Shown one piece after another: positions 23,693-25,030 of a stretch of 64,000 nucleotides of DNA. A program made the translations under genes and the position numbers. The notes beneath the pieces are model-generated. The model was not told where the DNA came from. It ran no database searches and saw only the letters and a program-made list of their open reading frames with translations. Position 1 is the first letter of the stretch. Every line of letters begins with the position of its first letter. Origin of the DNA: a virus (Duplodnaviria; Heunggongvirae; Uroviricota; Caudoviricetes); the IMG/VR virus record IMGVR_UViG_2541047712_000002. The stretch is one strand, 5' to 3'.

Positions 23693-25030
23693 TTAGTTGA
23701 AATCCAAAGAATCAAGTTCTGCTTTAAATTTATCGACAATTTTCTCAACTTCAACAACAATTTCATCAATCACCTTTTCTTTGTGTTGATTAGAGTTGAG
23801 TGCTAAATAGGCATTTTCTAACTTATACCTAGACAGACTATTTTTAATCTCATCAGCGAATCTATTGGTGAAACCATTGGTTAACAGAATACTTCTCTCT
23901 CGGGGGGAAATAGGATACTTATCGTTGAGTTTTATTAGCCTCTTTAAATGTTTTTCATCCTTGATCACCCTCACTTTATTACCTGCGATTCTAAGCTCCC
24001 AGCCTATAAAACCAGGTAACAAAGAGTTGAACTCAGCTACTTTATCGGCTGCATTTTCCATCCTCAGCTCAATGCTGTTTCGCATATGCATAGGTAGGTC
24101 ATTAAATCTTTGAAGCAAATGTTGTCGGCAGGGGTTGTTGTAAGACCACAGAATTGCGAACGTAGCCCTTAAATGACGGTATCTTGAATCGATTTTAGGG
24201 GGCTCACGACCTCGAACCATTTCTTCAACATAAAACTCTACATCTTTTCGGTATTCGTTATCAAATATCACAGCAGCATAAGAGTCCAAATAATGAACTT
24301 TCGATATTGCTTCTTCAAAAAAAAGTTGGCCTTCGAAGAAGTTATACTTGCTTAGCAGGCTGTAAAGTCTCTTTGCGTCATAGGTTTTATTAGTGTCAAT
24401 ATTAAGGCCGAATGTAGCTATCAGCAGGCTTACATTAGGACTAATGCTGTTGCGCAGCTGTTCTATGTAAGCTCTCTTTTCATAATCGGCTGATGACGGC
24501 GAATAGAAGTCTTTATCTAAATAATCAAGAATTAAAACTATGTGGTTAATATATTTAATGTAAACGGAGTTTTTGGTTACATGGTAATAAATAGCCTTGA
24601 TGAGATTCATTCCCAGTTTTGCATTAAGTTCCCTATCATCCTGCAAGGTCTTGTTAACATCCTCAAGTAATCTATTATGCTGTTCAAGTAATATGCCGTA
24701 CCATTCCTTAAAAGAGGCTTTTTTCATTTCAAGGAGTGAAGCTGCCGTCAGCCTAGTGGCCCTCATTGCTGCCTTTGCACTATGCCTTGCCTCGTAAGCG
24801 GCCCATGCTGTGGCGAAAAATGCAAGTGAAGTGGCAAGTGTACCTATGACCTCTACGTTTTCCTTGACGGTATCCCAGAAAATAATCATCACTGTCCCAA
24901 GTATGAGGATTAACAAAACAGGCATTTTATCAGTGTCTTTGGTTAATTTTGAAACTGAATGATACCTAATCGACCATACCATTTCAGCTAGTTTAAAGCT
25001 GTCTTGCCGGTTCTGGTGCGTCAACCTCAC
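23693..25030 (-). CDS. hypothetical membrane-anchored protein (low-GC accessory gene)
   Basis: 445-aa minus-strand ORF; N-terminal hydrophobic helices (MPVLLILILGTVMIIFW; IGTLATSLAFFATAWAAY) then large soluble domain; AT-rich codon usage unlike flanking genes. Confidence 0.4.
   Translation of the reverse strand: MRLTHQNRQDSFKLAEMVWSIRYHSVSKLTKDTDKMPVLLILILGTVMIIFWDTVKENVEVIGTLATSLAFFATAWAAYEARHSAKAAMRATRLTAASLLEMKKASFKEWYGILLEQHNRLLEDVNKTLQDDRELNAKLGMNLIKAIYYHVTKNSVYIKYINHIVLILDYLDKDFYSPSSADYEKRAYIEQLRNSISPNVSLLIATFGLNIDTNKTYDAKRLYSLLSKYNFFEGQLFFEEAISKVHYLDSYAAVIFDNEYRKDVEFYVEEMVRGREPPKIDSRYRHLRATFAILWSYNNPCRQHLLQRFNDLPMHMRNSIELRMENAADKVAEFNSLLPGFIGWELRIAGNKVRVIKDEKHLKRLIKLNDKYPISPRERSILLTNGFTNRFADEIKNSLSRYKLENAYLALNSNQHKEKVIDEIVVEVEKIVDKFKAELDSLDFN

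Follow-up and report, generated by a model that had tools for sequence, protein, structure and literature searches.

The stretch of DNA analyzed here (the window) comprises 64,000 nucleotides of the IMG/VR virus record IMGVR_UViG_2541047712_000002 and is, by its gene content and sequence identities, part of an SSU5-like phage-plasmid of Escherichia coli. The gene under study lies on its minus strand at 23693–24925 and encodes a 410-residue protein with a predicted membrane anchor, which by profile and motif comparison is very probably a highly divergent member of the AbiC/AbiP (putAbiC, PF16872) superfamily. By analogy with the lactococcal members of this superfamily, the gene is probably an anti-phage gene of the AbiC/AbiP type. 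The initial annotation of this DNA had proposed a candidate abortive-infection or exclusion factor; homology and genomic context support this proposal as a prediction, whereas the coordinates and the promoter position given with it had to be corrected. The AbiC/AbiP kind of defense was known beforehand, and what is new is an unannotated, divergent enterobacterial member, which is not surprising in kind.

Family assignment and gene model

The gene had been described as an orphan whose product belongs to no family recognizable by eye. It is not an orphan, having more than 70 close relatives and 139 that are detectable with a profile, and sensitive profile searches place its membrane-anchored product in the putAbiC / AbiC-AbiP superfamily. 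In PHROGs the protein matches phrog_18168, to which no function is assigned, with an E value of 1e-176. Among the 72 homologues, P0064 and P0072 carry a precomputed match to PF16872 (putAbiC), and one is named "putative phage abortive infection protein". Re-scanning with PF16872, which has a Pfam gathering score of 22 bits, gave 31.2 bits for P0072, 25.9 bits for P0064, and 23.1 bits for P0060, with the matched region equivalent to approximately residues 120–200 of the window protein. The 139 profile matches (E ≤ 0.001) were obtained from 1.84 billion representative proteins, and the proteins recruited in this way have a median length of 435 aa. PF16872 was found in 82 of the 110 recruited proteins that were scanned (E ≤ 0.001), and the PADLOC models for AbiC and AbiP matched 12 and 11 of the recruited proteins, respectively. 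Profile-profile comparison (hhalign) of the family with 19 short putAbiC-like proteins of 230–439 aa resulted in a probability of 99.1% and an E value of 1.4e-18 over 172 columns, covering residues 17–206. Inspection by eye revealed the shared motifs LLEQHN, Y-x-(R/K)...L..(I/L)D, K(K/R)xY...(L/V)R(S/N)xI, LxA, and (F/Y)xFFE, which can be read against the superfamily core pattern LLEQHN ... Y.R.LY..LK.ID ... KK.Y..I.RS.I ... L.A.N ... FFEH. The PF16872 matches in relatives, the hhalign result, and the shared motifs together argue for a divergent member of the AbiC/AbiP superfamily.

The core residues kept in the window protein are Phe-72, Leu-79, Leu-80, Glu-81, Gln-82, His-83, Asn-84, Tyr-125, Leu-133, Tyr-153, Arg-158, Ile-161, Ala-170, Phe-196, Phe-197, and Glu-198, and the core residues replaced are R127N, H131L, K134D, S159N, N172F, and H199G. 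Five of the replaced residues, Arg-127, His-131, Lys-134, Asn-172, and His-199, are present in 65–87% of the 110 relatives, and their loss explains why the Pfam model misses the window protein. Matches of the window protein to DUF6524, DsbG, and similar entries were at chance level (E values of 0.06–0.4) and were rejected, and the Pfam scan of the protein gave no match to a HEPN family or to Abi_C (PF14355). The Abi_C family, the C-terminal HEPN RNase domain of AbiJ (e.g. in SadR), is alike in its name and its abortive-infection label but is unrelated (PMC13590631).

The initial annotation gave the gene as an open reading frame (ORF) of 445 codons. An uninterrupted minus-strand frame with a GTG start does extend over 23693–25030, but this start makes the protein too long. 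In most homologues, including distant ones, the start is the equivalent of Met-36 of this ORF, within the sequence MP(V/I)LLILILG (MPVLLILILG in the window). In-frame stops interrupt the 35 upstream codons in the relatives from Enterobacter (L011), Klebsiella (L012), and a P2-like prophage (L003), and the similarity in this upstream stretch is at the nucleotide level, with the frame not preserved. The GTG start (445 aa) was therefore rejected, and the coding sequence (CDS) was set to 23693–24925. The Met-48 start chosen by PGAP (398 aa) was also rejected, since it would delete the conserved first helix. The flagged ORF is a real gene under purifying selection, with ratios of nonsynonymous to synonymous substitution rates (dN/dS) of 0.22 against the Enterobacter copy, 0.16 against Klebsiella, 0.15 against the P2-like prophage, and 0.13 against the Pectobacterium copy. 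Both its length and its frame have been kept in copies from five genera of enterobacteria and several types of element. The features of the gene and its product are as follows.

23693–24925, minus strand: CDS of the AbiC/AbiP-like protein, 410 aa, with ATG at 24925 and the stop codon at 23693–23695 (conserved Met-36 start, dN/dS, phrog_18168)
24926–25030, minus strand: spurious 35-codon N-terminal extension, which is non-coding leader/promoter DNA (in-frame stops in L003, L011, and L012)
24875–24922, minus strand: predicted transmembrane helix 1, residues 2–17 (Kyte-Doolittle maximum of 2.9; helix at residues 2–15 in the AlphaFold2 model; hydrophobic in distant homologues)
24794–24856, minus strand: predicted transmembrane helix 2, residues 24–44, which continues as a 73-residue stalk helix, followed by the motif TAWAAYEARxSAKAA
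24308–24877, minus strand: core homologous to putAbiC/AbiP-like proteins, residues 17–206 (hhalign, PF16872 in P0072, P0064, and P0060, conservation map)
23696–24307, minus strand: C-terminal domain of the long form, residues 207–410, with helices and two small β-hairpins (AlphaFold2 confidence mostly 84–97)

Protein architecture, cassette, and variable slot

The N-terminal transmembrane helices and large soluble domain noted initially agree with our analysis, in which two hydrophobic helices are followed by a mostly helical domain. Helix 1 stays hydrophobic despite a changed sequence in P0064, P0070, and P0072, and the TAWAAYEARxSAKAA motif just past helix 2 is almost invariant within the subfamily. 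Two hydrophobic N-terminal segments are present in 61 of the 110 relatives and one in 33, and the close relatives include a single-helix clade (P0065–P0071). The net charge is −1 in the inter-helix loop and +4 in the 30 residues past helix 2, which by the positive-inside rule suggests that the remaining ∼365 residues are probably located in the cytoplasm. The AlphaFold2 model, based on 39 sequences, has a mean predicted local distance difference test score (pLDDT) of 84.4 and a predicted template modeling score (pTM) of 0.74 and consists of the 73-residue stalk and a helical domain, with the two small β-hairpins in the last third. No recognizable enzymatic or nucleic acid-binding fold was detected in the model. 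The core at residues 17–206 holds the LLEQHN, Tyr-125, Tyr-153, Arg-158 (RN), and FFE motifs. For the C-terminal domain (residues 207–410), the profile search detected no relatives outside the long-form family members, and full-length profile matches were obtained solely in proteins of ∼410–490 aa.

Read from the DNA, the gene is a self-contained, stand-alone cassette with a putative promoter and a terminator of its own. The elements of the cassette and the borders of the slot that it occupies are listed here.

24959–24987, minus strand: promoter-like site CTGAAA-17-TATCAT (consensus scan), which travels with the gene
24996–24997, no strand assigned: 5′ boundary of the mobile cassette, where nucleotide similarity to each of the mutually unrelated contexts L003, L004, and L006 begins
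23669–23690, no strand assigned: hairpin terminator usable both ways, an 8-bp G+C-rich hairpin directly past the stop codon
22898–23512, plus strand: left border of the slot, a tRNA cluster (Asn, Tyr, an aberrant tRNA-like gene of 133 nt, Ser)
25132–25502, plus strand: phoH remnant of 34 codons (25132–25233), then grxA (25254–25502), the right border of the slot, as in the PGAP annotation of an identical record

The 5′ boundary is located 72 nt upstream of the ATG, so that the promoter-like site is included in the cassette. A related site, CTGCAA-17-TATCAT, precedes the copies in the P2 prophage (L003) and in Pectobacterium (L004), and the lambdoid copy (L006) retains at least TATCAT. The initial annotation had placed a divergent promoter region at 25030–25070; the promoter-like site of the gene instead lies inside the 445-codon ORF, and a plus-strand promoter-like site is found at 25072–25100. 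The bidirectional terminator proposed at 23669–23690 holds, as a hairpin follows the stop codon and its plus-strand reading, GGGGC-TTCG-GCCCC, is followed by TTTTTG; this hairpin could also terminate the tRNA transcripts. A hairpin follows the stop codon in four of the five contexts compared, and those of the P2-prophage, Pectobacterium, and lambdoid copies are at the same place, with the first two alike in sequence.

Family members occur in the following further contexts.

L003: P2-like prophage, orf30 slot, flanked by the tail genes S and V, on the strand antisense to the late genes
L013: second P2-like prophage, after the tail-fibre assembly gene G, where the Z/fun locus of P2 lies
L006: lambdoid prophage, between a replication gene (lambda-P-like) and the RusA/Q region, antisense
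L014: integrase/excisionase (int/xis) end of another prophage
L008 and L015: two IncFII plasmids, with genes for the toxins ParE and RES next to one copy and a faint Abi_2 match near the other
L004 and Klebsiella aerogenes: chromosomal islets in Pectobacterium (L004) and in K. aerogenes, the latter beside IS110 in one copy

The neighbors differ in all nine contexts examined, no conserved partner gene stands beside the family members in any of them, and the sole feature that recurs past the end of the gene is a terminator hairpin. The orientation is antisense in the SSU5-like, P2-like, and lambdoid contexts. The orf30 (S–V) and Z/fun (G–FI) sites are two of the three loci where horizontally acquired genes are found in P2-like phages, and phage exclusion is the function listed for Z/Fun (PMC3091744). 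The cassette thereby resembles the lysogenic-conversion exclusion genes of P2 (old, tin, Z/fun) and other prophage accessory cassettes in its promoter-gene-terminator layout, in an orientation that is independent of or antisense to the phage operons, and in its occupation of the orf30 slot and the place of Z/fun (PMC3091744). There is no sequence relationship to these genes, and the likeness is in genomic lifestyle only. All observed family copies are in plasmid, prophage, or chromosomal records, and a tblastn search of 50,697 phage records retrieved no copy of the gene, despite the existence of its own PHROG (phrog_18168). In the Pectobacterium brasiliense contig (L004, 1–1822), a 616-aa AAA_15/AAA_21 ATPase and two small genes, which may be another defense-type gene set, are located ∼5–7 kb from the homologue P0047.

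The helicase, primase-like gene, DNA ligase, tRNA cluster, phoH, grxA, integrase, and CobT-like protein of the window are those of an SSU5-like phage-plasmid. Positions 23500–25300 are 100% identical to pTHO-010-2, a 113-kb plasmid of E. coli THO-010, over the 1.8 kb compared. Close relatives of the region of the gene are found in ∼220 further E. coli plasmids of 100–115 kb and in phages such as Cyrano and CMS-2020a. The earlier description of the DNA as a temperate element is therefore correct, and two further points of that description agree with our data. The gene is the sole annotated minus-strand gene of its region, alone between the helicase/primase/ligase block and the integrase, with all neighbors on the plus strand in pTHO-010-2, and it lies just downstream of tRNA-Asn, tRNA-Tyr, and tRNA-Ser (22898–23512). 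The low G+C content attributed to it is real but modest (38.6% in the ORF compared with 44.4% in the window), and the true low-G+C block (30–34%) is a fimbrial operon at 26–31 kb.

Related elements differ in the presence or absence of the gene, and the content of the slot between the tRNA cluster and phoH/grxA varies among them. In the Enterobacter and Klebsiella relatives, the same slot holds the flagged gene, divergent from an intact phoH. The slot is occupied by two plus-strand hypothetical genes in pECAZ162_2 (E. coli) and by three in p503025_100, and it holds essentially nothing in phage Cyrano. The genes that fill the slot instead in other plasmids contain no recognizable domain, and the slot is not assignable as a general defense hotspot. 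In pMTY18780-3 (L018), the flanks and the fimbrial operon are 99.9% identical to the window, and the same slot and strand carry a different paralogue (WP_001718056.1, 420 aa, L018 2321–3583, minus strand), which is 38% identical over residues 1–311 and has an unalignable C terminus. We surveyed 5,426 complete E. coli genomes, of which 221 contain the flanking DNA. Window-type alleles were found in 17 of the 221 and fall into three classes with 99–100%, 82%, and 72% nucleotide identity, and the second type, the WP_001718056.1 paralogue, was found in 40. At least four sequence classes are thus distributed across 57 of the 221 E. coli SSU5-like elements, and the surveyed copies of both types are all on plasmids, with none on a chromosome. 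Deeply diverged alleles that replace one another in a single slot would be expected of a gene engaged with changing phage targets.

The right border of the slot differs between the window and its relatives. The phoH remnant region (25072–25257, plus strand) keeps the first 34 codons alone, directly before grxA, and forms a deletion scar adjoining the cassette. The corresponding position carries an intact phoH in Enterobacter, in Klebsiella, and in a further element of E. coli, and in relatives the intact gene is followed by a crAss001_48-like gene and a Gp49-family gene.

Proposed function and alternative explanations

The founding members AbiC and AbiP are lactococcal proteins established as abortive-infection proteins by experiment, with one or two N-terminal transmembrane helices (PMC13064643). 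AbiC lowers the production of the major capsid protein and leaves DNA replication unaffected, and AbiP binds RNA and single-stranded DNA independently of sequence, halts both the replication of phage DNA and the switch from early to late transcription, and has a major tail protein as its trigger (PMC13064643). AbiC (Prf) of Lactococcus lactis pTN20, the namesake of putAbiC (PF16872) and of the PADLOC AbiC model, is likewise a single gene on a mobile element. Its product shares with the window protein two N-terminal transmembrane helices, an all-helical soluble domain, and no recognizable enzymatic fold (PMC13064643), as well as a core region related at the profile level. The window protein differs in its Gram-negative host and phage-plasmid carrier, in the additional residues 207–410, which are unaligned to the short putAbiC-like proteins (230–439 aa), and in scoring below the Pfam and PADLOC thresholds with several conserved polar residues replaced. 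AbiP of L. lactis, grouped with AbiC as AbiC/P, is alike in membrane anchor and superfamily, and the PADLOC AbiP model matches 11 recruited relatives. It has one transmembrane helix (PMC13064643) in contrast to the two of the window protein, as does the P0065–P0071 clade.

We infer the following scheme, from the cytoplasmic orientation and the expression in the carrier state to the anti-phage phenotype and every molecular step. The protein would be expressed from the promoter of the cassette for as long as the element persists as a plasmid prophage, and the two-helix hairpin would anchor it in the inner membrane with the helical domain facing the cytoplasm. It would be harmless until activated by a component of a superinfecting phage, and by analogy with AbiC and AbiP the activated protein would block phage development after DNA entry. 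Such a block would protect the population of cells carrying the phage-plasmid.

Several observations weigh against this assignment of function. The window protein alone had no match in Pfam, PADLOC, or NCBIfam, and its tie to the lactococcal proteins runs via the Pfam and PADLOC models. Searches by tblastn with two short relatives found no lactococcal AbiC or AbiP, returning either nothing or only Vibrio, Pantoea, Shinella, and Janthinobacterium plasmids. With the substitutions R127N, H131L, K134D, N172F, and H199G, the protein may work differently or be inactive. Comparison of the structure model with other structures gave no relative with a functional clue. Our literature search found neither a phenotype for any enterobacterial member nor a mention of putAbiC or PF16872. 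A lactococcal AbiC-like protein with 38% identity to AbiC conferred no resistance to the phages tried (PMC11381338), and the molecular mechanism of AbiC and AbiP, two proteins that differ from each other, is unresolved (PMC13064643).

A gene of the element's own, with a membrane protein serving plasmid competition, post-segregational stabilization, stress sensing, or lysis modulation rather than defense, would fit the presence of the family on plasmids as well as phages, the toxin-antitoxin genes that adjoin the IncF plasmid copies, the loss of several conserved superfamily residues, and a fold from which no function can be read. We regard such a role as unlikely, as no partner or antitoxin-like neighbor travels with the gene, and the gene is missing from ∼164 of the 221 SSU5-like elements of E. 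coli and from all sequenced phage records searched, which argues against a core function; divergent alleles swapping at one slot also better fit an arms-race gene. Exclusion of superinfecting phages at the envelope, where DNA entry or receptor function of incoming phages or phage-plasmids would be blocked before any intracellular step and without cell death, is suggested by the conserved two-helix anchor and by the finding of a small lone gene with a membrane anchor in accessory slots of prophages, one of them at the place of the P2 exclusion locus Z/fun (PMC3091744). The bulk of the protein (∼365 aa) is predicted from its charge bias to be cytoplasmic, however, and the steps affected by AbiC and AbiP, namely the production of capsid protein, the replication of DNA, and the transcription switch, all come later than DNA entry (PMC13064643), which leaves envelope exclusion with a distinctly low probability.

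The substitution of five polar positions that rank among the most conserved in the superfamily might also mark an inactive or decaying AbiC/AbiP-like relic that hitch-hikes in a variable region, and the region has suffered rearrangement, as the adjoining phoH is a deletion remnant. Decay is very improbable given that copies from five genera of enterobacteria and several kinds of element retain the length and frame, at dN/dS of 0.13–0.22, that the substitutions are common to the whole subfamily and themselves conserved, and that the structure model is confident (pLDDT 84). The same five replacements, together with a ∼200-aa C-terminal domain that differs between same-slot alleles, lead us to consider a variant to which we assign a small probability. 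The long-form enterobacterial subfamily could be a functionally distinct membrane-anchored phage sensor, in which the C-terminal domain sets the phage recognized and the output is unlike that of AbiC/AbiP, for example on the membrane. An anti-phage gene of the AbiC/AbiP type is the explanation that we favor over these alternatives.

Neighboring features and significance

The window and its relatives show several further features. At 23069–23201 (plus strand), a 133-nt tRNA-like gene, annotated by PGAP as "tRNA-OTHER", stands where related elements have a normal 76-nt tRNA-Thr(TGT). Its 5′ acceptor, the start of the D arm, the T arm, and the 3′ end are identical to tRNA-Thr, and the part from the D loop to the anticodon arm is replaced and ∼57 nt longer. 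It was not called by ARAGORN with default settings or by Rfam; with introns allowed, ARAGORN reported a weak tRNA-Ser(cga) with a 54-nt intron, and the RNA has a folding z-score of −3.7. A chaperone-usher fimbrial operon (26591–31265, plus strand) of 30–34% G+C is inserted between grxA and the integrase and comprises a PapB/FocB-like regulator, a major subunit, a chaperone, an usher, and a further subunit. This operon was found in six of the 5,426 complete E. coli genomes, in each case on a plasmid of ∼113–115 kb and on no chromosome, and both carrier plasmids with inspected flanks are SSU5-like. The grxA-integrase interval is a second variable slot, which holds a YafO-family toxin and a partner gene in the Enterobacter (L011, 1233–2164) and Klebsiella (L012, 1156–2617) SSU5-like plasmids, with an additional colicin E1 immunity gene in Klebsiella, the fimbrial operon in the window, and a 184-aa minus-strand gene in Cyrano. 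A 1-kb bin of the backbone (14001–15000) also has a low G+C content of 33.6%.

AbiC was described in 1992, and to our knowledge both AbiC and AbiP still lack a resolved molecular mechanism and a solved structure. The functional work on AbiC and AbiP that we found in the literature was all carried out in Lactococcus. The family described here includes relatives in E. coli, Klebsiella, Enterobacter, and Salmonella that are easy to manipulate, and their carriers are SSU5-like phage-plasmids, which are widespread in the clinic, as well as P2-like and lambdoid prophages. They are annotated as hypothetical at present, and the PADLOC and Pfam models miss the window protein and most of its close relatives. 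In the passages of a DefenseFinder survey of phage-plasmids that we consulted, AbiC is not named among the systems listed for SSU5-like elements (10.1101/2025.09.12.675607). In at least one-quarter of the SSU5-like elements of E. coli, the slot is filled by one of several strongly diverged alleles, which suggests that SSU5-like elements influence how sensitive their hosts are to phages, an effect that present defense surveys may undercount. If the long-form proteins do prove to be a distinct kind of phage sensor, they would provide a tractable E. coli model for a defense family whose mechanism has been open since 1992. The practical gain would be a better annotation profile, natural allele swaps for tests of specificity, and an entry in E. 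coli to an unsolved defense family.

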